Source: Gemmatimonadota bacterium (GTDB lineage Bacteria; JAAXHH01). From it: a stretch of 64,000 nucleotides of DNA. The translations under genes were made by a program, and so were the position numbers. Positions within the stretch are counted from its first letter, which is position 1, and the number at the start of each line of letters is the position of its first letter. Shown here piece after piece: positions 23,756 to 36,669 of this stretch. The DNA lies in NCBI GenBank assembly GCA_026705925.1, contig JAPOZT010000011.1, positions 212,857 to 276,856 of the forward strand. The letters run 5' to 3'. Below the pieces are notes generated by a model. That model saw only the letters and a program-made list of their open reading frames with translations, did no database searches and had not been told where the DNA came from.

Positions 23756-25108
23756 ATGTACCGGACCCTTTTCTGGTTCCTCCTCCCCCTCGTCATCACC
23801 GAACTGATCTACGAACTGGGCATCCAGGTCATCAACGGCGGCATCGCCCGTGTGCCCCGGCCCACCGAAACCCTGGCCGCGTACGGTATTGCCTGGGGGC
23901 TGACGTCTTTCCTGACCGGCACCGTCTCCCAGACCCGGCAGATGTCCATGGTCCTCGTCCGGGACCGGGCGACCTTCCACACCGTGCTTCGATGCGTCGC
24001 CGGTTTCGGTGGTGTGCACTTTCTCATCCTTGGGTGTCTGGCGTTTACACCGGTGGGACTATGGGTGATCGACGAGCTTCACGCCGTGGACCCGATCCTC
24101 GGCGGCACGGTGCGCAGCGCGCTCGGACTCCTGCTGCCCATACCGCTGATCGTGGGCATCACGAGGTTCCTGTCGGGTCTGCTGTTGCGGGTGAGACGGA
24201 CCGACATCATCAGTTATGCCATGATGGCGGGCATCAGCATGAGCGTGGTGTCCGTGTTCCTGTTCCTCCCGACGCCGACCGTCCAGGCCGATCCCATATT
24301 GCTGCCGGTGGCCGCGACCTACTTCGGCGTCCTGACGGAATTGGTTGTGATCATCTATGGCTACCGGCGATTCGTCCGGCGGACACTGAAGCGGTCGAGC
24401 GGGGAAATCGTAAGCGAGGAAATCGAAGGGGGACGAGCGGCCGGGCAGGATGCGGCCGGCGAACCGGTCTCCCGGAGACAGCACCCGCTGACCGCCGCCT
24501 ACGTACTGCGGTTCTATTGGCCCCTGGCCGTAACGATCGGCATACAGGCCTTGAGCCGGCCCATCATCAACCTGTTCGTCGCCCGGGGCGCGGACGGCAC
24601 GGAATCCCTGGCCGTGCTCACCATCGTGTACGCCCTTGCGCATCTGCCCTACGGGTGGCTGAACGAACTCAAGAACCTGCCGCCCGCCTTTCAGCGACAG
24701 GACCCGGAAGGCCGGATCATCCGACGGTTCACGGCCATCTGCGGTCTGATTTCCTTTGGGACCATGGTCCTGATGTTCTGGACCCCGGTGAGGTTCTTCC
24801 TGCTGGAGTCCCTGATCGGCGTGGATCACGATTTCGCCGTGCGCTGCACCGTGCCGCTGATCATCTTTTCCTTTTTTCCCCTCGCCGTCACGATCCGGTC
24901 CTATCTCCACGGGATCGCGCTGCGGGACCATCGGACAGGCGCGATCGCACCGAGCGGACCCGCCCGGGCCGGCGCGATCGTCATCGTCGTGAACGTACTC
25001 GCGCTCTTCGATCTGCACGGGGCGATCCGCGGCGTGGCCGCCCTCTACAGTGGGTTTGTCACGGAAACGATCGTGGTCCGGTGGCGCATGGGCAGAAGGC
25101 GCGGCTAG
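23756..25108 (+). CDS. polytopic inner-membrane protein (MATE/MOP flippase-like, about 12 TM)
   Basis: The 450-aa protein has about 12 hydrophobic segments in two halves separated by a charged loop (GEIVSEEIEGGRAAGQDAAGE). No specific family motif was recognised. Confidence 0.5.
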   Translation: MYRTLFWFLLPLVITELIYELGIQVINGGIARVPRPTETLAAYGIAWGLTSFLTGTVSQTRQMSMVLVRDRATFHTVLRCVAGFGGVHFLILGCLAFTPVGLWVIDELHAVDPILGGTVRSALGLLLPIPLIVGITRFLSGLLLRVRRTDIISYAMMAGISMSVVSVFLFLPTPTVQADPILLPVAATYFGVLTELVVIIYGYRRFVRRTLKRSSGEIVSEEIEGGRAAGQDAAGEPVSRRQHPLTAAYVLRFYWPLAVTIGIQALSRPIINLFVARGADGTESLAVLTIVYALAHLPYGWLNELKNLPPAFQRQDPEGRIIRRFTAICGLISFGTMVLMFWTPVRFFLLESLIGVDHDFAVRCTVPLIIFSFFPLAVTIRSYLHGIALRDHRTGAIAPSGPARAGAIVIVVNVLALFDLHGAIRGVAALYSGFVTETIVVRWRMGRRRG

Positions 25109-26367
25109 CTGGCCGTCTCCCTCCATCCCTTCGTGATGTCCAGGAAGGCGTCGATGTCCTGCTCGTTGTTGAACATGGCGGGACCCACGCGGATCTGGGT
25201 GTTGTTCTCCCGGAAGGACAACCAGACCCCCGTGTCGTTAAGCTGCTTTTCAATCACTTCGTGGTCGGCGGCGTGGTTGAAGGAAACGATGGCGGACTGA
25301 TTGCTGGCCGGCGTGAAGACCTCGAACCCCTGCTCGGTCAATCCGTTGTGCAGGCGGTGCGCCAGGGCCACCGTGTGCTGCTCGATCCGGTCTGTTCCCA
25401 CGTTCAGCAGGTAATCCAGCGACGCGGAAAGCTGGTAGATCGCCGCGAAGGCGGGGGTGGCGTATCCAAACTTCCTGGCGTCGGTGTAAAGCGTGTACTG
25501 GAAGTCGGGAAGCCTTTCGTCCACCATTCTCCATCCCAGGCGGTCGGGCTTCACCACGTCCATTACCGATTCCCGCACGTAGAACGGCGCTACGCCGAAG
25601 CCGCCGAGTAGCCACTTGTACGACCCCGTGGTGAGGAAATCGACCCCGGTCGGTCCGACGTCGAGATCGACCATGCCGACCCCCTGGACGGCATCCGCGT
25701 ACAGGTAGGCGCCGCTAGCATGGGCCACGTCCGCCAGGGCATTAAGATCGTGACGGTAGCCGTTCCGGTTGGATATCCAAGCCACGGAGACCAGCTTCGT
25801 CTTCTCGTCGACCATCTCGGCGAAGGCTTCGGGCGAAGCCACGCCGTCCACGTTCCGGACGATGCGCGTTTCGATGCCCAGGGTCTCGGCCAGCTGGCTG
25901 TACATCACAAACGACGTCATGTAGTGAAGATCGTCGATCACCACGTTGTCCCCGGCCTGCAGGGCCAGGGAGTTGACCACGATGTTCTCGCCCTCGCTGG
26001 TGGAGGACACCAGCCCGATCTCGCTCAACTGTGCCCGGATAAGGCGCGAGAACTTCTCCCGCACGGCTTCCTCTTCATCGAGCATGGCGCGCAAATGGAC
26101 GGGATCGCGGGACTTGGCCGCGAGGAACTCGATGGTCTTGTCCACCGCGGGCTGTGGCGAGGGACCGATGTAAGGCGTATTCAGGTAAAGGTTATCGCCG
26201 GCGACCGGAAAATCCGTGCGTACGCCCAGGGGATCGTCGCCGGAGGGAGGCGCGGCGCTGACATCCGCCGGGACCTGGTCCGATTCGTCGCTGCATGCTA
26301 GTCCTGCGGCGCCGGCGAGGGCGGCCGTGGACACGACGCCCATGAACTCCCGTCTCGATACGGACAT
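25105..26367 (-). CDS. class V PLP-dependent aminotransferase/desulfurase-like enzyme with a Tat signal (probable Tat-lipoprotein)
   Basis: The N-terminus carries the Tat motif SRREFMG followed by a hydrophobic region and LACS (a lipobox-like Cys). The PLP lysine context TGSYKWLLGGFG is typical of fold type I class V enzymes such as SufS/IscS and isopenicillin-N epimerase. Confidence 0.7.
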   Translation of the reverse strand: MSVSRREFMGVVSTAALAGAAGLACSDESDQVPADVSAAPPSGDDPLGVRTDFPVAGDNLYLNTPYIGPSPQPAVDKTIEFLAAKSRDPVHLRAMLDEEEAVREKFSRLIRAQLSEIGLVSSTSEGENIVVNSLALQAGDNVVIDDLHYMTSFVMYSQLAETLGIETRIVRNVDGVASPEAFAEMVDEKTKLVSVAWISNRNGYRHDLNALADVAHASGAYLYADAVQGVGMVDLDVGPTGVDFLTTGSYKWLLGGFGVAPFYVRESVMDVVKPDRLGWRMVDERLPDFQYTLYTDARKFGYATPAFAAIYQLSASLDYLLNVGTDRIEQHTVALAHRLHNGLTEQGFEVFTPASNQSAIVSFNHAADHEVIEKQLNDTGVWLSFRENNTQIRVGPAMFNNEQDIDAFLDITKGWRETAS

Positions 26368-26503
26368 GAGTTGCTCCTTTGCATCTTGGCTAGGATGAAT
26401 CTTGGCTGGGATTAACTGGTATGGGGTGTGCAGACACGGTATGGAGGCCGTGGGAAAGCGTCAAGGAAAGAACAGGTCAGTCCGCCTAAGTTGTCCAATC
26501 ACA

Positions 26504-26515
26504 CCTGTATTTAGG
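26504..26515. repeat. left copy of the 12-bp direct repeat CCTGTATTTAGG bracketing the low-GC island
   Basis: This copy matches 11 of 12 positions with CCTGTATTTAAG at 30901-30912. It lies at the GC-content transition on the left side of the island. Confidence 0.45.
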
Positions 26516-26702
26516 ATGCAAAAAGTTGGGTGTTTGTCACAATACAGGATGATTAGGGGTACATCTTGACATGGATGTGATTAACTTGTTCCTTCGTTTT
26601 AGATTATCTCTGCAACATACTACTTTATACATAACGAGCCTTTCGTTAGTGCCAGGAAAGGCATGGTTATCTACATGTTCACCACGCAGACAGGAACGAT
26701 AG

Positions 26703-27806
26703 TTGAAACTTCCTACCTACGAAGAAATCTCGAGCGACGAGAAGCAATTGGAAGTTCGGGAGTGGCCGCCTAATGAGTCACTTTTTGTCGTAGGACCACC
26801 GGGATCAGGTAAGACAGTATTGGCGGTTTTACGCGCTGAAATGGTATCTGAGTGGGCAGAAGAAAAAGATGTTATACTTGTAACCTACAACCGTATGCTA
26901 AGAAGGCTACTGGATTTGCTAGATAGAAGCGGTGTGAATGCGTCAACCATGCACAGTTTTGTATGGAATCATTATACCCATGTTACTAAGGAGGATGTGC
27001 CTACGCTACAAACAAACTCCTATGTTTATAATTGGAAAAACATGATAAGTCACCTAAGTCAATCAAGTGTGTCTTCCTCCCTCTCTTGTTTAATTGTAGA
27101 CGAAGGACAGGATCTTCCCGTCGACTTCTTTAGATACACTGCTAGATTTGTCGCCAAAACTCTCACAGTCTTTGCCGACCAAGATCAGGCTATTGGCGAT
27201 CGGCACACAACTCTTGAACAAATCAAGGGGGCTACAGGCTTAGATGACCCTATTATCCTACAAAACAACCATCGGAATACACCAGAAGTGGCAAGGGTTG
27301 CTGAGCACTTTCACAGCGGACTCTTGCCGGCTGCTAAGGTATCCCGAAATTCCATTGGAGAGGTGCCACGATTAGTTAAGACACGAGACATCGATCATGT
27401 GGCAGTACTAGTTTCGAATTGGCGACAAACTCGGGGAGGATCGGTAGGCGTGATTGTTGTACGAAATGAAACGGGAATTGCACTCCATCAAAAACTCAAG
27501 GATCGGCTTTCAGGAACGCGTGTTGACATCTACAGGAACGACGATAAAAACGAAAATAGTATAAATGTTCTAAATGACGGAGTGACGGTTCTAAATAAGG
27601 AATCGGTTAAAGGACAGGAGTTCGACACAGTATTCATCTTGGAAATCGAGCACCTCATTCCCATCGCCAACGATACAGACCGTCGAGCTATGTATATGAT
27701 GTGCTCCCGAGCTCGAGATCATTTGTTCCTTATTTATGGTCCAACTGAACTCACGGTTCCAGCTGCGGAAGCACTACCAGGACCGGAAATCCTTGAACGA
27801 GTTTAA
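26703..27806 (+). CDS. compact UvrD/PcrA-like superfamily 1 helicase/ATPase (367 aa)
   Basis: SF1 motifs are present: Walker A GPPGSGKT, motif II IVDEGQD, motif IV-like NHRNT, motif V VKGQEFDTVFI, and motif VI MCSRARDHLFLIY. The start is a TTG codon. The GC content of about 42% contrasts with about 65% in the flanking DNA. Confidence 0.75.
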   Translation: MKLPTYEEISSDEKQLEVREWPPNESLFVVGPPGSGKTVLAVLRAEMVSEWAEEKDVILVTYNRMLRRLLDLLDRSGVNASTMHSFVWNHYTHVTKEDVPTLQTNSYVYNWKNMISHLSQSSVSSSLSCLIVDEGQDLPVDFFRYTARFVAKTLTVFADQDQAIGDRHTTLEQIKGATGLDDPIILQNNHRNTPEVARVAEHFHSGLLPAAKVSRNSIGEVPRLVKTRDIDHVAVLVSNWRQTRGGSVGVIVVRNETGIALHQKLKDRLSGTRVDIYRNDDKNENSINVLNDGVTVLNKESVKGQEFDTVFILEIEHLIPIANDTDRRAMYMMCSRARDHLFLIYGPTELTVPAAEALPGPEILERV

Positions 27807-27808
27807 CT

Positions 27809-30019
27809 ATGGATAAAGACGTACAGACTTCTATGAGATTCGACAGAGTTGCTGAAACGAATTCTAATAGTGAGTTCGACGGTAATAATGGCCCTTGGTT
27901 TGGTTTGAGTTTGCATCATCGCCGGCTGTTAGATTCCCTTCAAGACGGCTGGTTGCGTCCTCCTGGCGAAAAGACCGGTCTGATATTAGGTAACTCAGCG
28001 TTCGTTAGCGAGCAGTTTGAGACGGGGAAACACACTATCATAGTTCAATTGAAGTTCGTTGCAGATAAACTTCCTAGCCTCGATGTGTTCGTCCTGCGTG
28101 GTGAACGTTGGTTTCCTTGCAAGCTAATGGAAATTGAATCATCTGATCATACTGTTTATTGGCCGGGTTCCCTCCCTACTTTCGCAGTTTCTGCCTTGTA
28201 TGTTAAAAACGATCAGGAACGTATACGGCTCAGTACCTTAGCCCGTCAGTTTTCAAACTTGTCTCTACCCATAGACGTAACAGTCAACACTACAGAATCC
28301 ATTTCACCACAACACCAACACGAACCCCCAGAATCGAATAGAAGGATCGACATCCCGCACGATGAGGATGCGATCCGCGGTGCCATGAGCATGGCTGTGT
28401 GGGCTGTACCTAAAACCGACCCATGGTTGGAACTACTAGTGACAAGTCTGTCCTTTGATAATAAAAAGACCACTAAATCGGCTGCCAACGTGGAGGCGAA
28501 TTGGTGGAGAGTTCCACCATGGAGTGATTGGCCCAACAATGTCAAAATTAAAGATCTTCAGGATGGTTTTTGGCGGTCTGCAATTGAAGTCTTCAGTGAA
28601 CATTCTGGACAAAGTGGTGTTAGTCCGTACGTACTCGCCGAGAAAATCAAATCTAAGGCTGATAGTGCTTACTGTACCGACTACTCGTCGACTGATACCT
28701 CTGCGTGGCTAGACAATACAAACCAAATACTTCGAGCGGATTCTGTTTTTAGTGTAATAAACTGGCAACATAATCCTGTTGGGAAGGCTATCCAACTAGT
28801 ACTGACACGTCCCGAGCCAGACAACTTCAAGACCTGGCGTCGAGATATACACGACCTTCCCCCGATAGTGTGGTGGTCTGCAGCTGTTCTGTGTGGACTC
28901 AAACATGGTTACAAGAGGTTGAATCTGTGTTTTCGAGGTGAAGTACCACTCCAAGAGGCACTTACAATACATGCATTGCAGTCATGTAATTTGTCCTTGA
29001 AAAACATGAAATGGCCATCTTTGACAGGTGATCCAAATTGGCGCAGGAATGGAGATGGATTTGAACTGCTTTGGGGAAACGCGGTTATTGCACAAAAACA
29101 AGGAAATGCACGTAGCCGATGGTATGTAGCTGACTTCAAAAAAGATCTGATCCGGTCTAGCGCAGTGACATTAGCGAAGGAATTGAATTGGACTTGTCTA
29201 CGCCAAACACTCCAGCTTAAGTCTGGTCAGATTGCCTATTCTGGTACAGGCGAAATCGAGATCCGAGACCATAGACTCGCTATTCATGGAGAAATAACCT
29301 TGGAAATGCCATCGAACGTGGACATTCGCTCTGAATTGGATGTCGAATCCTTTCGTCATCTAGTCGCGGTGTCTGCCGGACAGCTTCCAGATCCGCCACA
29401 GGTAGTCGCTCAGGTATCTATATCAAAAAACCACATCATCACCGGACTCAATTACGTACCAGATTTTGTAAGTGAGACCGAAGAAGCAGAACTCGTCGCG
29501 AAAATAGATTCGAACGTATGGCTAACTGATATAAAAAGGCGCGTACAACATTATGGTTGGCGATACGATTATGCTAATCGGCAGGTAAATCCAGCTATGC
29601 GTATTGACGATCTGCCAGATTGGGCTATTGAAATCGCCCATCGACTAGTTGATCAGAAGCTTGTCAAACAGATGCCGGATCAGTTGATAGTCAATGAATA
29701 CAAAGGCAGCCAAGGAATTGGTAGGCACATTGACAGTGAACCGTACTTTGCCGATAACATTGCCATGATCAGCTTACTTGAATCTTGGGAGATGGTTTTT
29801 CGACAGAAATCCAACAGTAAAATCAAGCATAATATAATGTTAGACAACAGGAGCGTGGCAATTATGAGCGGGCCTGCTCGCTACCTGTGGACTCATGAAA
29901 TACCGAGCAGGAAATACGAACCGGGTCCCGAATTGCTCGATGGGAAGAGATCAAGGAAGTTACGAAAACGTCGTCTTTCGCTCACATTCAGGAAAGTACT
30001 TCACGAGATTCTTCGGTGA
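27809..30019 (+). CDS. fusion protein: N-terminal region of about 540 aa with no recognisable family, plus a C-terminal AlkB-type 2OG-Fe(II) dioxygenase domain
   Basis: The C-terminal 200 aa align motif by motif with E. coli AlkB. RRVQHYGWRYDY matches the AlkB N-terminal lid. LIVNEYKGSQGIGRHIDSEP matches the AlkB Fe-binding HxD motif. ARYLWTHEI matches the distal His. RRLSLTFRKV matches RYNLTFRQ, the 2OG-binding Arg pair. The gene starts 3 nt after the helicase stop, indicating translational coupling. Confidence 0.75.
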   Translation: MDKDVQTSMRFDRVAETNSNSEFDGNNGPWFGLSLHHRRLLDSLQDGWLRPPGEKTGLILGNSAFVSEQFETGKHTIIVQLKFVADKLPSLDVFVLRGERWFPCKLMEIESSDHTVYWPGSLPTFAVSALYVKNDQERIRLSTLARQFSNLSLPIDVTVNTTESISPQHQHEPPESNRRIDIPHDEDAIRGAMSMAVWAVPKTDPWLELLVTSLSFDNKKTTKSAANVEANWWRVPPWSDWPNNVKIKDLQDGFWRSAIEVFSEHSGQSGVSPYVLAEKIKSKADSAYCTDYSSTDTSAWLDNTNQILRADSVFSVINWQHNPVGKAIQLVLTRPEPDNFKTWRRDIHDLPPIVWWSAAVLCGLKHGYKRLNLCFRGEVPLQEALTIHALQSCNLSLKNMKWPSLTGDPNWRRNGDGFELLWGNAVIAQKQGNARSRWYVADFKKDLIRSSAVTLAKELNWTCLRQTLQLKSGQIAYSGTGEIEIRDHRLAIHGEITLEMPSNVDIRSELDVESFRHLVAVSAGQLPDPPQVVAQVSISKNHIITGLNYVPDFVSETEEAELVAKIDSNVWLTDIKRRVQHYGWRYDYANRQVNPAMRIDDLPDWAIEIAHRLVDQKLVKQMPDQLIVNEYKGSQGIGRHIDSEPYFADNIAMISLLESWEMVFRQKSNSKIKHNIMLDNRSVAIMSGPARYLWTHEIPSRKYEPGPELLDGKRSRKLRKRRLSLTFRKVLHEILR

Positions 30020-30058
30020 ATATCAAAGTACTTATCTCAGAGTAAATACGTTGTTGAG

Positions 30059-30898
30059 ATGGAGTATTGGTTGACTACACAACTGCCCCGATGGTTGGTC
30101 TCTCTCCGATCCAGCGTAGTCGTCGAGCCTGTCAGGAACGATCCCCGTACAGTTGAGCATACTGTTTTTGGTATCGATCTCAAGACTGCACAAAGAAAAG
30201 TCTTGGCTAATGGACAGGCAAACTTCGACAAGTCGTGGAACGGTCTCTCCCCACACGATCGTGCACTCGTATATGCCTACTTAAATCAACTAGGTCACCT
30301 AGAAGAACTGGTCGAGGCTTTTCGACAGCTATTTAAAGACCAAGAACCTCCTAACGAAACTATACTCATAGATATCGGTTGCGGACCATGTACAGGAGGT
30401 CTTGCATTCACCAGTGTTTATTCTAACACAGCACGATTTGATTATATCGGAGTGGATCGTTCGCAAACTATGCGAGAACTGGGTGAGCTAATGGCAGCTA
30501 CCGCTACACAAATGAATGAGGTAAATCGGCAGTGGATTGCAGACATTACATCTGCAAAATGGAACAGTGCCCCTGGCTGGCGACCGATTATTGTTGTCGT
30601 ATCGTACCTGCTAGCGAGCCCGACATTGATCCCTGGACAACTCGTTACTCAACTCGAAACTCTTCTACGGAAAATTGGCAATGGTCCGGTTACTGTACTT
30701 TATACCAACTCAAATCAACCTATCGCCAATCTTAAGTTCCCGGAGTTTAACGATTCACTAAATAAAATCGGTTTCAAGTTATATGCTGACGACGAAGGCG
30801 AGATTGTTGTCTCACGTAGGGATGGATCCACAAAACGCAATTTCAGATATGCCTTGTTCCATCGCCCTTTGAAACGAATTCTAAAGCTAGATAACTAG
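30059..30898 (+). CDS. class I SAM-dependent methyltransferase (substrate unknown)
   Basis: Motif I ILIDIGCGPCTGG (E/DxGxGxG) is followed by an acidic post-I residue (YIGVDRS). There is no (D/N)PP(Y/F) motif, so it is not a typical N6A/N4C DNA methyltransferase. The GC content is low and the gene is in an operon with the AlkB fusion. Confidence 0.7.
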   Translation: MEYWLTTQLPRWLVSLRSSVVVEPVRNDPRTVEHTVFGIDLKTAQRKVLANGQANFDKSWNGLSPHDRALVYAYLNQLGHLEELVEAFRQLFKDQEPPNETILIDIGCGPCTGGLAFTSVYSNTARFDYIGVDRSQTMRELGELMAATATQMNEVNRQWIADITSAKWNSAPGWRPIIVVVSYLLASPTLIPGQLVTQLETLLRKIGNGPVTVLYTNSNQPIANLKFPEFNDSLNKIGFKLYADDEGEIVVSRRDGSTKRNFRYALFHRPLKRILKLDN

Positions 30899-30900
30899 GT

Positions 30901-30912
30901 CCTGTATTTAAG
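30901..30912. repeat. right copy of the 12-bp direct repeat (CCTGTATTTAAG), 3 nt after the methyltransferase stop
   Basis: Read directly from the sequence, as for the left copy. Confidence 0.45.
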
Positions 30913-31050
30913 TCTCTCCTCTAGTGGAATATAGTAGCATTACGGTAGTGCTTCGGTATCTGGTTTTCTGTGTTTTCCAACACTCAACATGCAAAGTGCA
31001 ATGTCTAGCGCGGATTGGATTAATTACTCATTAACATAAGGGGTTAGATC

Positions 31051-32091
31051 ATGTTCTACCGTATAGTTTCTATACTTATATTCGTTTTGCTAGCCCCACG
31101 TTTTCACGCCCAGGAAGTCGATCCGCCCTTCGGCGATCCGGCATTCATCTCGCCCGACGCCCGCCTGGAGATGGTGTTCAATGAAGGCCTGGCCCTGACG
31201 GAGAGTCCCGCCGAGGGTCCGGACGGGATGATCTACTTCAGCGACATCACCTTCACCACGTCCGCAGGTACGGATGGCATACAGGCCGGGCACATTTGGC
31301 GCTATGACCCGAAAACGGGCGAGACCACTATTTATCGTTCGCCGAGCGGGATGTCCAACGGCCTCAAATTCGACGCCCAGGACCGGCTCATCGCCGCGGA
31401 AGGCGCCGACCAGGGCGGACGGCGGGTGACAAGGACGGATATGGAGACGGGGAAGGCCTACATTATCGCCCACGAATACGAAGGGCGGCCGTTCAACGCC
31501 CCGAATGACGTGGCCATCGACGAGCGGGGGCGGGTCTACTTCAGCGATCCCAAGTACATCGGCAATGAATCGGTGGAACAGCCCGTGATGGCGGTGTACC
31601 GCATCGATACCGACGGTTCGATCCACCGGATCATCACCGACGCGGGCAAGCCGAACGGCGTGGTGGTCTCTCCCGACCAGCAGACCCTCTACGTGGTCAG
31701 CAACGACAACGGTTCCATCGACCTGGGCAAGATCACCCTGGACATCCCCGTGCACAAGGGACGCATGGCCCTGCTGGCCTACGACCTGCACGAGGACGGA
31801 TCCGCCACCTTCCGGAGCGTACTCGTGGACTACCTGCCCGAGGACGGGCCCGACGGCCTGGTCGTCGACGTCGAAGGCAACCTGTACGTGTCCGAGCGCG
31901 ACGTGACCCGGCCGGGCATCGCCATACGCGCACCGGACGGGACCGAAAAGGCCTTCATCCCCACCGGCGTGCTGCCCACCAACGTGGGCTTCGGACGGGG
32001 CGAGAACAGCAAGATCCTGTACATCACCGCGGGTACAGGGCTCTACCGGATCCCCGTGATGAAGGACGGCTATCATCTTCCGCGGGAGTAA
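31051..32091 (+). CDS. SMP-30/gluconolactonase/LRE-like six-bladed beta-propeller hydrolase, secreted
   Basis: A signal peptide (MFYRIVSILIFVLLAPRFHA) is present. Repeated motifs include GPDGMIYFSD, PNDVAIDERGRVYFSDP, PNGVVVSPD and GPDGLVVDVEGNLYVSE, which are typical of gluconolactonase/regucalcin. Confidence 0.75.
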   Translation: MFYRIVSILIFVLLAPRFHAQEVDPPFGDPAFISPDARLEMVFNEGLALTESPAEGPDGMIYFSDITFTTSAGTDGIQAGHIWRYDPKTGETTIYRSPSGMSNGLKFDAQDRLIAAEGADQGGRRVTRTDMETGKAYIIAHEYEGRPFNAPNDVAIDERGRVYFSDPKYIGNESVEQPVMAVYRIDTDGSIHRIITDAGKPNGVVVSPDQQTLYVVSNDNGSIDLGKITLDIPVHKGRMALLAYDLHEDGSATFRSVLVDYLPEDGPDGLVVDVEGNLYVSERDVTRPGIAIRAPDGTEKAFIPTGVLPTNVGFGRGENSKILYITAGTGLYRIPVMKDGYHLPRE

Positions 32092-32124: not shown

Positions 32125-33831
32125 ATGTCTTTTCTAGACTGGACCATCGTCTTTCTCGTCAACGGCGGCATCGTCCTGTACGGCCTGCTGGCGTTCCGGG
32201 AGAAGGGCGAAAGCTTCGACTGGTACCTGGCGGCCAAGTCCATGCCCTGGTGGGCCATCGGCCTGTCCGCCTTCGGCACCGCCGTGGACAGCGGCGACTA
32301 CGTGGCCATCGCCGGCGGCTCGTACCAGTTCGGCCTTTCCCAGCTGTCGCAGTGGTGGCTCGGGATCGCCATCGGCTGGTTCGTGCTTGCCTTTTTCGTC
32401 ATCCTGCCCATGTACCGGTCGGGCGTATTCACCAACGCCGAGTGGCTCGAGTTCCGCTTCGGGCCGTCCGTCCGCATCATGGCGGTCCTCATCAACATCC
32501 AGTCCCGCACCAACGTCCTCGCCAACATCTTCTTCTCCATGTACCTGGTGCTGAGCGTCCTCGCCGGGTTCTCCACGACCGCCAGCTGGTTCGTCGTGGT
32601 AGCGGTGGCCGCGTCCGCGACCCTCTACGTGGTCCGCGGCGGCCTGCAGGCAGGGGTGTTTACCGACGCCGTCCAGGGCGTGGCCATGATCATCGGATCC
32701 TTCGTGCTCTGGATCGTAGTCTGGGTCCGGGGCGGCGGATGGTCGGGGCTGAACGAGCGCCTGGCCGCCGTGGACCCCGGACTGCCCGACGTGATGCTCC
32801 ACGTGGGCGGTTACGCGCCGCCCGGCGTCCCCGCGGCGGTGGTCATCCTCAGCTTCATCGTCGTGCTGACCATGTATGCCGTCATCAACCAGTACGAGGC
32901 GATCCGGTTCCTCGGTGCCCGGTCGGAGTGGGATTTCAAGATGGCCGCGGTGGTGGCCAGCACGGCCACGGCCGTGTGCCTCTGGTTCAACATCACCATG
33001 GGCCCCATGGCCCGGGCGGATTTCCCCGCCCTGGAAACCATCGACCAGGCCTATCCACTGATGATCCAGGCCTACCTGCCCCACGGACTGATCGGGATCG
33101 TCGTGGCGGGGCTCATCGCCGGTGGCTATTCCACCTTCGACTCCATCGGCATTGGCATATCGAGCCTCTTCGTCCGTGACATCTACGCCCGGTTCATCGT
33201 GAAACGCGCGTCGGACGCCCACTATACCCGCGTGGGCCGTATCACCGCCCCCTTCATCATGGCCCTGGGCTTCGCCTACGTGCCCTTCATCCAGGAGGGC
33301 ATGCTGGCCTTCTACCTCCGCCTGGCCGGCGCCATCGCCGTGCCGCTCATGACGGTCATCCTCATGGGCGTCTTCACCCGCGTCCACCGCTCGACCGGCA
33401 TCGTGGGCCTGCTCGTCGGGCTGACCTACGGCGTGACGGCCATTTTGGGCGAAAGCCTGGAATGGGGACTGCCGGTCTGGTACACCAACACCTGGTGGAC
33501 CTACCTGTGGAACATCGTGCTGCCCGCCGGCGGCATGCTGGTCGCTTCGGCGCTGATCACGCTTCGGAGCGGTCCCATGTCCGACGAGGCCCTGGAAGGA
33601 CTCGTCTACGCGCGGGAGAACGACATCCCCTCGGTGCGCAATCGCATGGCCCACCGGCTGAAGGCCCTCGAAGGCACCTGGCTGCAGAAGACCCTGGCCG
33701 AGATGCCGGTTCGGGGGGCCTATCCCTTCAAGCTGCCGCCCGGGGGCTTGCCGCTGTTCCGCCGGCCCGGGGTGCTGGCCCTGGGTTACCTGGCCATCGC
33801 GTCGGGCTTGCTGTTCGGGGTGCTTTGGTAA
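32125..33831 (+). CDS. sodium:solute symporter family (SSF) transporter
   Basis: The 568-aa protein has about 13-14 TM segments and SSF-like N-terminal organisation. It lies 33 nt downstream of the gluconolactonase, suggesting an operon. Confidence 0.7.
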   Translation: MSFLDWTIVFLVNGGIVLYGLLAFREKGESFDWYLAAKSMPWWAIGLSAFGTAVDSGDYVAIAGGSYQFGLSQLSQWWLGIAIGWFVLAFFVILPMYRSGVFTNAEWLEFRFGPSVRIMAVLINIQSRTNVLANIFFSMYLVLSVLAGFSTTASWFVVVAVAASATLYVVRGGLQAGVFTDAVQGVAMIIGSFVLWIVVWVRGGGWSGLNERLAAVDPGLPDVMLHVGGYAPPGVPAAVVILSFIVVLTMYAVINQYEAIRFLGARSEWDFKMAAVVASTATAVCLWFNITMGPMARADFPALETIDQAYPLMIQAYLPHGLIGIVVAGLIAGGYSTFDSIGIGISSLFVRDIYARFIVKRASDAHYTRVGRITAPFIMALGFAYVPFIQEGMLAFYLRLAGAIAVPLMTVILMGVFTRVHRSTGIVGLLVGLTYGVTAILGESLEWGLPVWYTNTWWTYLWNIVLPAGGMLVASALITLRSGPMSDEALEGLVYARENDIPSVRNRMAHRLKALEGTWLQKTLAEMPVRGAYPFKLPPGGLPLFRRPGVLALGYLAIASGLLFGVLW

Positions 33832-33956
33832 GGGACCGGCGCCAACCCCGAGGCAGGATCCTTCTGGCAAGTTTCCCGGCTGTCCTTTCCTGACGATCCT
33901 TTTCCGACTATACTGTAAGCAATGTGCCCGTTCTTGAAACAACCGGCAAATTTGGC

Positions 33957-33974
33957 GGGTCTAAACTTAGACCC
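33957..33974. promoter_or_regulatory. perfect 18-bp palindrome GGGTCTAAACTTAGACCC upstream of the small ORF/ABC permease cluster
   Basis: Read directly from the sequence. The imperfect inverted repeat CGGAAATTCC...GGGATTTTCCG lies nearby at about 33981-34008. Confidence 0.45.
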
Positions 33975-34039
33975 ACTTCCGGAAATTCCATATCGGGATT
34001 TTCCGTAGTGGGGTATTCCGCCCCTTAATCAAGGAGAAC

Positions 34040-34162
34040 ATGATGAGCACATTTGGAATGACCGAGTTAATCCTGATTTTCATTGCGTTATTCTTAGCAC
34101 TGCCCATCTGGTTTACCTATAAAATTATCAGCCACAGATTACGGAATAGAAACAAACCTTGA
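34040..34162 (+). CDS. small ORF (40 aa, single predicted TM helix) missing from the ORF track
   Basis: A near-perfect Shine-Dalgarno sequence AAGGAG lies 6 nt upstream of ATGATG. The peptide is MMSTFGMTELILIFIALFLALPIWFTYKIISHRLRNRNKP. Its AT-rich codons (TTA, ATT, AAA) are atypical for the host. It is followed by the hairpin GGAATCC-N9-GGATTCC at 34163-34185. Confidence 0.45.
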   Translation: MMSTFGMTELILIFIALFLALPIWFTYKIISHRLRNRNKP

Positions 34163-34260
34163 GGAATCCATTTAAAGAGGATTCCGTATAAAACGGGCTC
34201 ATCCAGCGTTCATTTTCCAACCCTTCCGGGACAAAACCACCTCGAAACGGTTCCCCCTCA

Positions 34261-36669
34261 ATGTTCAAGAACTACCTCACCACCGCACTGCGAAACCTGC
34301 TCAGGCACAAGGGCTATTCGGCGATCAACGTCCTCGGGCTGGCCATCGGCATTGCCTGCTGCGTGCTGATCCTGCTCTACGTGCAGGACGAACTCAGCTA
34401 CGACCAGTATCACGAGAAGAAAGACCGGATATACCGCGTGGCGGAATCCGCGACGGTAGCGGGAAGGTCCATCGAAGCCGCAGTTACGCCCCCGCCCTGG
34501 GCCCCGGTGCTGGCAAAAGACTATCCTGTCATCGAGGCGTATACCCGGATCAAGCCTCCGGCCTCCCGGTGGCTGATTCGGTACAAAGAAAAGCGGTTTT
34601 ACGAGCGGTATTTCGCCTTCGTGGATTCATCGTTCTTCGACATTTTCACCTTCCCCCTGGTTCAGGGCGATGCGAAGACGGTCCTGGCCGACCCCCATAC
34701 CGTGGTGCTGTCGGAATCCATGGCCGACAAGTACTTCGGGGACGAGAACCCGATCGGCGAGGTCATTACGGGCGATGACCTTTATGAGTTCACGGTTACC
34801 GGCGTCATGCGGGACATGCCGAAGAACACTCATTTTCATTTCGACTTTCTGGCCTCCTATGCCTCCCTGGCGCCGCACAGGCTCTACGATGAACCGTCCA
34901 CGATGCAGGACCAGGGCTTCAGCCACGACCTGTTTACCTATTTACTTCTACGGGAAGGAAACGCACCCGAAGACCTGGAGCGGGAATTTCCCGGATTCCT
35001 GGACAAGTACCTTGGCGAACTGCTCACGTCCGTGGGCATCGAGGCCCGGCCCTTCCTGCAGCCCATCACGGATATCCACCTCCATTCCAACATGGAAGCC
35101 GAAATCAGGGCGAACAGCAGTATCCGGTACGTGTATATCTTTACCTGCCTGGCCGTCTTTGTCCTGCTGATCGCCTGCGTGAATTTCGTGAACCTTTCCA
35201 CCGCCCGTTCCGCCCGCAGAGCGCAGGAAGTCGGCATGCGGAAGGTGCTCGGCGCCTTTCGGAATCAACTGATCAAACAGTTTACGGGCGAGTCGATCCT
35301 GGTCTCCCTGATCGCCCTGTTCATCGCACTGGGCCTGGTTCACCTGCTCCTGCCGCAGTTCAACCTGTTCTCCGGCAAGGCGCTGGCGATGGACTACCAG
35401 TCTACCTGGCTGGTACCAACCCTGGCGGGCATTGCCCTGGTGACGGGGATCGCCGCGGGTGGATATCCCGCCTTCATCCTGTCCTCCTTCAGGCCGGTGG
35501 CCGTACTGACCGGCGCGCTCAAGGCGGGGGCGTCTCATTCGCTCCTCAGGAAAGTCCTGATCACCTTCCAGTTCGGTATTTCTATCCTCATGATCATTGG
35601 CACGCTCGTAGTCCTCGATCAGCTGGAATACATGCAGAACAAGCCCCTGGGCTTCGATGAAGACGACCTGGTCGTCGTTCGCCTGCCGGATGAGGAAGCC
35701 CTTAATGGCTATCCCGCCTACAGGGACGCCTTGATGCAGTATCCTGAAATCCTTAACGTGAGTACGGCGAACAGCATACCCGGGGGCCAGACGAGCCTCA
35801 ACCTGGTTACGCCGGAAGGGGTGCAGGAGGATGAAAGCCCGGTGTACCAGATGGTCCAGGCGGACTTCGGCTACATAGAAACACTCGGCATCGAGATGGC
35901 GTCGGGACGGACGTTCTCCCGGGCCTTCGGAGCGGATTCCACCGCCTGCCTGATCAACGAGGCGGCCGTCCGGACCCTGGGATGGGAAGACCCGATCGGC
36001 AGAACCTTCAGGTTAACCGGAGAGGATGATGACCCGCCCCTGAGCGTCATCGGCGTCATGGCGGATTTTCACGTCCAGTCGCTGCGCCAACCCATAACGC
36101 CGCTCATGGTGCGACTGGATGAAGAACCCGCTTCATTTATGGTCGTCAGGATACAGGGCACGAACGTATCACGTGGAGTTGAAACACTCCAGGAACAGTG
36201 GCGGAGTACGTATCCGAACCATCCCGCCCTGGATTACTCGTTTCTCGATGACGACCTCAGGCAACTATACCAGGACGAACGACGGCTCGGTTCCGTGTTC
36301 ATCGCCGGTGCGGTGCTTTCTATCCTGATCGCCTGCCTGGGACTGCTGGGGCTGTCGTCCTTCATGGCGGAGCAACGGACCCGGGAGATCGGTGTGCGGA
36401 AGGTCCTCGGCGCGACGGTATCGAACGTGATCCTGCTATTGTCGAGGGACTTCACCAGGCTGGTCCTGCTGGCCTTCGTGCTCGGAGCGCCGGCGGGTTA
36501 CTACGCCATGCACTCGTGGCTGGAAGACTTCCCATACCGTATCGAACCGGGCCTGGGGGTGTTCCTTTTCGCGGGTGTCGCGGCGTTGTCGGTCGCCTGG
36601 CTGACGGTGGGATACCAGTCGTATAAGGCCGCGGCCACCAACCCGGCGGAAGCGGTGCATGCGGAGTGA
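34261..36669 (+). CDS. FtsX-like ABC transporter permease (about 800 aa; two MacB/FtsX permease modules with a large periplasmic domain)
   Basis: The N-terminal TM helix is followed by a large periplasmic domain and a C-terminal FtsX 4-TM module. There is an internal duplication of the TM module. No ATPase domain is fused. Confidence 0.8.
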   Translation: MFKNYLTTALRNLLRHKGYSAINVLGLAIGIACCVLILLYVQDELSYDQYHEKKDRIYRVAESATVAGRSIEAAVTPPPWAPVLAKDYPVIEAYTRIKPPASRWLIRYKEKRFYERYFAFVDSSFFDIFTFPLVQGDAKTVLADPHTVVLSESMADKYFGDENPIGEVITGDDLYEFTVTGVMRDMPKNTHFHFDFLASYASLAPHRLYDEPSTMQDQGFSHDLFTYLLLREGNAPEDLEREFPGFLDKYLGELLTSVGIEARPFLQPITDIHLHSNMEAEIRANSSIRYVYIFTCLAVFVLLIACVNFVNLSTARSARRAQEVGMRKVLGAFRNQLIKQFTGESILVSLIALFIALGLVHLLLPQFNLFSGKALAMDYQSTWLVPTLAGIALVTGIAAGGYPAFILSSFRPVAVLTGALKAGASHSLLRKVLITFQFGISILMIIGTLVVLDQLEYMQNKPLGFDEDDLVVVRLPDEEALNGYPAYRDALMQYPEILNVSTANSIPGGQTSLNLVTPEGVQEDESPVYQMVQADFGYIETLGIEMASGRTFSRAFGADSTACLINEAAVRTLGWEDPIGRTFRLTGEDDDPPLSVIGVMADFHVQSLRQPITPLMVRLDEEPASFMVVRIQGTNVSRGVETLQEQWRSTYPNHPALDYSFLDDDLRQLYQDERRLGSVFIAGAVLSILIACLGLLGLSSFMAEQRTREIGVRKVLGATVSNVILLLSRDFTRLVLLAFVLGAPAGYYAMHSWLEDFPYRIEPGLGVFLFAGVAALSVAWLTVGYQSYKAAATNPAEAVHAE

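Follow-up and report, generated by a model that had tools for sequence, protein, structure and literature searches.

The window analysed here is a 64,000-nucleotide (nt) stretch of a Gemmatimonadota bacterium genome (assembly GCA_026705925.1, contig JAPOZT010000011.1, positions 212,857 to 276,856 of the forward strand). Composition profiles outline within it a sharply bounded low-GC island (positions 26400..31050; ~45% guanine plus cytosine, GC, versus ~62% in the window outside it) that holds three co-directional genes on the + strand: a minimal superfamily 1 (SF1)/UvrD-like helicase of 367 residues (26703..27806), a 736-residue, four-domain fusion protein that ends in an AlkB-superfamily dioxygenase (27809..30019), and a 279-residue protein resembling class I S-adenosylmethionine (SAM) methyltransferases (30059..30898). 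A first-pass annotation, made from the letters of the DNA, had described the middle gene as an AlkB-type enzyme fused to a large N-terminal region of no recognisable family. The finding is real, and it is more interesting than that description: the N-terminal region is predicted to contain folds related to the DNA ADP-ribosyltransferase DarT and to ADP-ribosylglycohydrolases, and the three genes are inherited together. The domain identities and the three-gene linkage are well supported; for the function, a role in conflict with phages or mobile elements is proposed.

The fusion is encoded by a single unbroken ATG..TGA open reading frame (ORF), exactly at the coordinates first assigned to it. 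Over 120 full-length homologues (41-74% identity, ~720-790 residues) were found among 5.8 billion proteins, and their existence rules out an assembly or frameshift artefact. All of these homologues carry the C-terminal Pfam domain PF13532, and almost none has been given a name. When the N-terminus alone was used as a phmmer query, 208 representatives were recovered among 1.84 billion proteins, and the full-length matches (~700-790 residues) again end in the AlkB domain. Residue conservation is continuous from residue 30 onward through the N-terminal region. The union of AlkB with a large N-terminal region is thus a conserved and unusual architecture, as had been claimed from the one sequence. 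A literature search found no description of such a fusion, and a prior description among surveys of RNA-repair or AlkB operons is possible. The window protein is itself slightly atypical: at residue 136 (nt 28214-28216) it has Gln where 117/120 homologues have Glu, and it is the only one of the 120 with Gln there. It also departs from the family at the positions, at least 80% conserved, of V84, N372, L381, R507, A589 and N594.

The C-terminal domain (domain 4, residues ~536-731, 29414..30001) is confirmed, from profile matches and conserved residues, as an AlkB-superfamily Fe(II)/2-oxoglutarate (2OG) dioxygenase. PF13532 (2OG-FeII_Oxy_2) matches residues 584-728 with E = 4.8e-23 and 82.8 bits against a gathering cut-off of 31.2. 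The HxD...H triad of iron ligands, H640 (nt 29726), D642 (nt 29732) and H696 (nt 29894), and the R-x5-R pair of 2OG-binding arginines, R722 (nt 29972) and R728 (nt 29990), are each 100% conserved in 120 homologues, leaving the active site intact as previously described. Among all PDB sequences, the best solved relative is human ALKBH8 (3thp; E = 1e-20, residues 545-705), followed by S. pombe P8A3.02c (E 6e-12), the ALKBH4-like DNA N6-methyladenine (6mA) demethylases and ALKBH6. Because the ALKBH8 match begins at residue 545, the domain is taken to start at about residues 536-545 (~nt 29414), in close agreement with the earlier estimate of ~nt 29411. The likeness to E. coli AlkB on which the first-pass annotation had relied holds at the level of motifs (HID, WTHEI and R-LSLTF-R are all present) but does not extend to orthology. 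The AlkB equivalog model of NCBIfam, TIGR00568, scores 17.5 bits, far under its cut-off of 231, and an E. coli-type AlkB orthologue was rejected on this ground; E. coli AlkB is also not among the PDB sequence matches up to E = 1. The two proteins share a superfamily fold, the HxD...H triad and the R-x5-R pair. However, E. coli AlkB is a stand-alone enzyme of ~215 residues that repairs 1-methyladenine and 3-methylcytosine (m1A/m3C), whereas the fusion carries 540 additional N-terminal residues and lies in a context that is not Ada-type.

One explanation for this domain, and the one originally offered, is alkylation repair by an AlkB enzyme with a targeting N-terminus. In a broader form, the protein would be a multi-eraser hub, clearing away methyl as well as ADP-ribosyl adducts left by competitors, phages or alkylating agents in the environment, at lesions that the helicase exposes. 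The intact AlkB active site is consistent with this explanation, although the domain is not an AlkB orthologue. The N-terminus may in its own right act as a targeting or sensor domain that directs demethylation; repair as the purpose of the whole protein is judged decidedly improbable, for reasons that arise from the neighbouring genes and the evolution of the locus.

The N-terminal region is indeed unrecognisable by sequence. None of its three sub-domains matches Pfam even at E <= 10, NCBIfam has no match to the 540 residues, and a HMMER profile of the region finds nothing among all PDB sequences. It is also Trp-rich, as first noted, with 21 Trp in 540 residues (3.9%), rising to 5.7% in residues 185-395. 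By structure, the same region can be assigned in two of its three parts. An AlphaFold2 model of residues 1-545, built on a 115-sequence alignment, has a predicted local distance difference test (pLDDT) score of 89.1 and a predicted template modelling (pTM) score of 0.88, and it resolves into an alpha/beta part (residues ~30-160), an all-helical part (residues ~185-395) and a beta-rich part (residues ~405-525). A Foldseek search with this model, an independent method, places four Thermus DarT entries at the top (E 4e-3, probability 1.00) and the ADP-ribosylglycohydrolase ARH3 next (probability 0.97).

In this model, domain 1 (residues ~30-160, 27896..28288) has the ADP-ribosyltransferase (ART) fold, closest to DarT, with conserved basic residues R38, R39, K87, R97, R138 and R140. 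Domain 2 (residues ~185-395, 28361..28993), the most Trp-rich part, has the all-helical ADP-ribosylglycohydrolase (ARH/ARG) fold, with matches that include the ARH immunity proteins Tri1 (6dre) and Lmo0067 (8za7). Domain 3 (residues ~405-525, 29021..29383) is an alpha/beta domain that joins the ARH-like domain to AlkB; it belongs to no assigned fold family and conserves W402, W438, C463, R435, D511 and R516. The order DarT-like fold, ARH-like fold, orphan domain, AlkB is well supported by the predicted structure and the Foldseek ranking. Structure prediction, which the first-pass annotation had proposed as its own check, therefore assigned well-known families to part of the region, and their role is not a mundane one.

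An ART fold is likewise paired with an ARH fold in toxin and immunity pairs, such as Serratia Tre1-Tri1 (6dre) and the Listeria Lmo0067 pair (8za7). Those are separate proteins, a secreted toxin and its immunity partner, with active sites present. The fusion, in contrast, is one cytoplasmic polypeptide with diverged sites, and the high pTM of the model suggests that its two folds pack as a unit.

The second line of evidence for the identity of domains 1 and 2 comes from other proteins that contain them. In a 1213-residue homologue (P0214), the domain 1-domain 2 module, ~33% identical to that of the fusion, is closely preceded by SLOG-like, DUF4326 and NADAR domains; a 1963-residue homologue (P0228) has the module at ~33% identity together with a YAcAr/SLOG domain. 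NADAR, DUF4326 and YAcAr/SLOG are components of conflict networks based on nicotinamide adenine dinucleotide (NAD) and ADP-ribose (PMC9503650), and this sequence context independently supports the DarT-like and ARH-like assignments. The two homologues resemble the polyvalent proteins of phages and conjugative elements, which contain the same NADAR, DUF4326 and SLOG/YAcAr domains. Each is one giant protein that has neither domain 3 nor AlkB and is not part of a three-gene cassette; the pair may show an ancestral or alternative use of the module. The co-occurrence of the module with the ADP-ribose-removing NADAR and DUF4326 domains would also suit the repair explanation, as would the fact that AlkB substrates and DarT adducts both occur in single strands (PMC9967889).

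DarT and ARH reference sequences were recovered from the PDB search outputs, and the roles of the DarT residues (NAD-contacting His13 and catalytic Arg51 and Glu160, Thermus numbering) were taken from PMC9967889. The DarT helix pattern NLxxIL..G.L matches RLFDALQDGWL in domain 1, although this is a pattern alignment and hhalign of domain 1 against DarT sequences is not significant. On the same statistically unsupported alignment, the position of the NAD-ribose-contacting His13 falls at L33, which is Leu in 111/120 homologues, and the catalytic Glu160 of 'QAEFLV' falls at L/V116. A segment of ~30 residues containing Arg51 is missing from the pattern alignment, domain 1 being ~130 residues long versus ~180 or more. 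For domain 2, hhalign against five real ARH sequences gives a probability below 2%. In that alignment the ARH metal motif 'GGDADTvaA' lies against 'LPPxVWWSAA', there is no equivalent of TDD and no recognisable DxDT, and T304 (97% conserved) aligns with the Thr of the ARH TH motif while the His is not conserved; this alignment, too, is statistically unsupported. Neither domain apparently retains its canonical catalytic residues in recognisable form, and the corresponding ADP-ribosyl chemistry has probably been lost.

These observations bear directly on a second explanation, in which the locus would be a genuine DarT-type system. Domain 1 would be an active, non-canonical ADP-ribosyltransferase toxin acting on single-stranded DNA exposed by the helicase, domain 2 would be its cis-fused ARH antitoxin, and AlkB and the methyltransferase would be accessory, serving for example in self-marking or clean-up. 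The fold matches to DarT and to the immunity proteins Tri1 and Lmo0067 are as expected for such a system, and a naturally fused DarT-DarG exists (Thermosipho DarTG; PDB 7omu). The strand that aligns with the catalytic strand of DarT also has the conserved D113 and E136/E137 close to it. A precedent that includes the helicase is provided by DarHTG (Liu-DS3, from E. coli, NAR 2026), in which a UvrD-like helicase without a 2B domain is combined with DarT and an ARH-type antitoxin, 'DarG3'; its anti-phage activity has been validated and requires the active site of DarT as well as the ATP site of the helicase (PMC13069673). Against this explanation stand the near-invariant Leu at the His13 position, the L/V116 at the Glu position, the missing Arg51 segment and the unrecognisable ARH metal motifs. 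Further, domain 1 (residues 29-164) matches neither DUF4433/PF14487 at E <= 10 nor the PADLOC DarT models, domain 2 (residues 178-399) has no PF03747 match at E <= 10, and the window copy carries Gln at the 97%-conserved E136. An active DarT-type toxin in domain 1 is judged distinctly unlikely.

The gene immediately upstream of the fusion encodes the helicase, identified through the Pfam domains AAA_19 and UvrD_C_2. It consists of two RecA-like cores only, yet has a complete motif set that includes GPPGSGKT (residue 31), DEGQD (residue 133), KGQEF (residue 303) and RARD (residue 336), and its TTG start is consistent with homologues that open with MRLPTYEEL. Its TAA stop ends at 27806, 2 nt ahead of the ATG of the fusion, and elsewhere there is a 4-nt overlap between the two genes, in agreement with the translational coupling proposed earlier. 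Among PADLOC models it matches the NERD+UvrD candidate C3a187 (1e-16), GajB and DRT helicases. Its nearest plasmid homologue, at 30% identity and annotated 'AAA family ATPase', lies on Deinococcus gobiensis plasmid P4 (NC_017792.1 31833-48915) in a six-gene operon with a second AAA ATPase, a 1075-residue helicase-related protein, a DUF1998 protein and two hypotheticals. From its gene content, that operon resembles a defence operon of the DISARM or Druantia type, so far uncharacterised.

Downstream of the fusion, the methyltransferase-like protein has both the glycine-rich motif I (IDIGCGPCTGGLA) and an acidic residue ending strand 2 (in DYIGVDRS) that mark class I SAM enzymes. D105-x-G107-x-G109-P and D133 are invariant or nearly so in 28 homologues. 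The protein matches the PADLOC candidate 'methyl transferase' C3a159 (E 4e-12) and, weakly, Pfam Rsm22; its profile matches Tmt1 (3g5t, 7e-4) and METTL17 (6e-3) in the PDB over the motif region. The family comprises 462 members, none of them named, and on present sequence searches it appears to be confined to the three-gene cassette. In other phyla, the homologous gene (46-63% identity) lies 5' of the helicase.

The combination of an oxygenase with a SAM methyltransferase is also found in ALKBH8, the closest solved oxygenase, which has the order RRM-AlkB-methyltransferase and modifies the wobble uridine of tRNA. ALKBH8 acts on what its partner methyltransferase has made, adding a hydroxyl group instead of removing the modification. 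By the same logic, the methyltransferase of the cassette would methylate tRNA, rRNA or DNA at a base or a side chain, and the AlkB-like domain would hydroxylate this product to a stable modified nucleotide. The N-terminal module and helicase would deliver the substrate, and the mark would label self or shield a target, for example a tRNA anticodon, from nucleases. Several features fit this sequential scheme poorly: the methyltransferase does not resemble Trm9, neither an RRM nor any other known tRNA-binding domain is present, and an SF1 helicase has no clear role in tRNA modification. The cassette further differs from ALKBH8 in having its methyltransferase as a gene of its own and in its setting, which is bacterial and mobile and includes a helicase and ART/ARH-like domains. 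The low GC of the cassette and its rapid turnover at a conserved site, described below, suit a conflict weapon better, although self-marking systems behave in the same way. Sequential hypermodification is considered unlikely.

The linkage of the three genes was examined on contigs with diverse homologues of the fusion and at 52 loci from GTDB species genomes, 44 of the loci being complete. The helicase is present in 42/44 complete loci, and all three genes occur together in 41/44 (merged coverage). The hosts include Gemmatimonadota, Acidobacteriota, Gammaproteobacteria, Nitrospira and Entotheonella, among others. In most phyla the order is methyltransferase, helicase, fusion; in a Gemmatimonadota-like group it is helicase, fusion, methyltransferase, and in both arrangements stops and starts within the cassette often overlap or nearly abut. 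An obligatory, co-inherited methyltransferase is left unexplained if the fusion is a repair enzyme. Three eroded loci have all lost the methyltransferase (3/3), two have lost the helicase (2/3) and all have kept the fusion (3/3), counts that are biased by a search seeded on the fusion. This erosion is a weak sign in favour of the fusion as an antidote, for which such a pattern would be expected.

All 52 cassette loci from genomes are in metagenome-assembled genomes (MAGs). Many of the MAG isolate names indicate marine sponge or symbiont metagenomes (SB0665, COS4, RHO1-3, APA bins, Candidatus Entotheonella, Vicinamibacterales, Ca. Azotimanducaceae), and ankyrin-repeat proteins flank three cassette loci. 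The cassette seems to circulate among distantly related members of one habitat, and its apparent concentration in sponge and marine-symbiont genomes places it in a group known for dense defence arsenals.

In the window, the island is bounded by ordinary metabolic and transport genes. According to family searches, the left flank is an aminotransferase class V gene on the - strand (25105-26367) and the right flank a SMP-30/gluconolactonase-like (SGL) gene on the + strand (31051-32091). The GC of the cassette is under that of its flanks at 6/6 loci tested. The same syntenic site is found in five related genomes, in which the flanking aminotransferase, SGL and SSF symporter are 79-97% identical to those of the window. 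For the cassette proteins at this shared site identity falls to 42-66%, with the N-terminal module the most divergent part. This difference points to rapid diversification or allelic replacement of the cassette. It is, together with the low GC and the patchy distribution, atypical for housekeeping repair genes, and a conflict system is the likelier explanation of the cassette when set beside stand-alone DNA repair.

At the island itself, searches for flanking direct or inverted repeats gave short, chance-level matches, promoter and terminator scans of the island did not exceed the shuffled expectation, and no tRNA or Rfam family was found anywhere in the window. A tblastn search of the N-terminus against 72,556 plasmids gave no match; with DarT as the query, the plasmids gave only a DarT-macro pair of the canonical kind, located within a type I restriction-modification (R-M) locus. 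N-terminal patterns found no relative in IMG/VR viral contigs. A complete cassette does occur on one IMG/VR uncultivated viral genome (UViG), 3300036781_000821, with a 935-residue variant of the fusion (L063:9922-12729) that has ~200 extra residues after AlkB; the fusion family is otherwise absent from 2.9 million viral contigs. Among the other genes of the UViG are those for a plasmid RPA replication initiator and a DUF932 protein; although classed as viral, the UViG looks from its genes like a plasmid or an integrative and conjugative element (ICE). A phage-borne origin of the gene was rejected, as it would depend on this single contig of plasmid-like appearance.

Elsewhere, the neighbours of the cassette occasionally include HigB, type I/II/III R-M genes, Cas1, transposases and PADLOC candidate systems. 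Of 143 neighbouring ORFs scanned, 2 are ADP_ribosyl_GH genes. Directly 3' of one cassette (L007:10389-11870, - strand) lies a gene for a 493-residue PTP-type phosphatase fused to a motif-complete, canonical ADP-ribosylglycohydrolase, a combination that matches the 'ARG-centric' host systems (PMC9503650).

Taken together, these data lead us to favour, tentatively and with a likelihood that falls somewhat short of even, the view that the cassette is an undescribed mobile conflict system. It would be directed against phages or other mobile elements, resemble a toxin-antitoxin module, be related in architecture to DarTG and DarHTG, and work by a writer and eraser. Such a system would act through reversible base modification in single-stranded nucleic acid. 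The helicase would expose or sense single strands; the methyltransferase, as the writer, would place methyl adducts that block replication or translation and so serve as the effector or 'toxin'; and the AlkB domain, as the eraser, would keep the host clean and serve as the 'antidote'. The DarT-like, ARH-like and orphan domains would be the remnant of a DarT-antitoxin pair, devoid of canonical catalytic residues and reused as a platform for nucleic-acid binding, sensing or regulation, one that holds AlkB to its substrate and to its partners. Methylation and demethylation are favoured as the chemistry because intact sites are seen in the methyltransferase, in AlkB and in the helicase, whereas those for ADP-ribosyl chemistry look to have been retired. 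Writer and eraser are favoured as the roles because the logic of DarTG, a base-modifying toxin with an eraser antidote, carries over. The matches of the helicase and methyltransferase to PADLOC defence-candidate models, a hallmark of such loci, would also count toward a conflict function.

The closest described system is DarHTG. In this variant of DarTG, a UvrD-like helicase without accessory domains, a DarT fold and an ARH-fold partner are found in one operon, and the cassette has all of these at the level of fold. The mobile, conflict-type distribution and the use of reversible base modification on single-stranded DNA are further likenesses. In contrast to DarHTG, the DarT-like and ARH-like parts of the cassette are fused and have apparently lost their canonical catalytic residues, and an orphan domain, an AlkB dioxygenase and an obligatory SAM methyltransferase gene have been added. 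DUF4433, ADP_ribosyl_GH and PADLOC DarT/DarG matches are absent from the window cassette. The kinship with DarH and DarG3 is architectural only.

A more specific version of this proposal is that the cassette constitutes a new abortive-infection or toxin-antitoxin class, derived from an ancestor with DarT, an ARH antitoxin and a helicase. Toxic chemistry would have shifted from ADP-ribosylation to the methylation of nucleobases, carried out by a dedicated SAM methyltransferase, AlkB would have become the antidote, and the retired DarT-ARH pair would have been kept as a sensor or scaffold. This evolutionary course is considered unlikely.

Several observations weigh against a writer/eraser conflict system. 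The roles of writer and eraser are assigned from sequence and a structural model, and the behaviour of ALKBH8, the nearest AlkB relative, which hydroxylates the product of its partner methyltransferase, fits a sequential rather than an antagonistic pathway. The putative inactivity of the DarT-like and ARH-like domains is drawn from pattern alignments, the profile-profile alignments not being significant. Moreover, acidic residues D113, E136/E137, D187, D204, D208, E336 and D372 are conserved across the 120 homologues, as is T304, and these domains may carry out a non-canonical catalysis. The relationship to DarH and DarG3 likewise comes from a comparison of architectures, rather than directly of sequences. 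At the level of the locus, defence genes are only occasional neighbours and many copies sit among housekeeping genes; PADLOC finds no known system at the window cassette; and in Gemmatimonadota the cassette occupies one stable chromosomal site.

The known roles of AlkB enzymes are repair and epigenetic or epitranscriptomic erasure, and DarT/DarG is the model of reversible DNA ADP-ribosylation. A conserved protein that joins DarT-like, ARH-like and AlkB domains and is inherited with a helicase and a methyltransferase connects the two fields and suggests that bacterial methyl writer/eraser pairs may be used in the same conflict logic as ADP-ribosyl pairs. If so, the cassette would extend the anti-phage and toxin-antitoxin repertoire by a new chemistry and offer a natural case of a toxin-antitoxin pair fossilised as a regulatory module. 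It would also supply a compact, helicase-coupled demethylase with possible use as a tool.

Two other parts of the window depart from its overall composition. Between positions 33800-34400, a short stretch of 47-49% GC, without an Rfam match or tRNA, occupies a ~430-bp gap that runs from the SSF symporter gene to the first MacB/FtsX permease gene. Positions 1-2000 have 53% GC, compared to ~62% elsewhere, and may represent another acquired segment.

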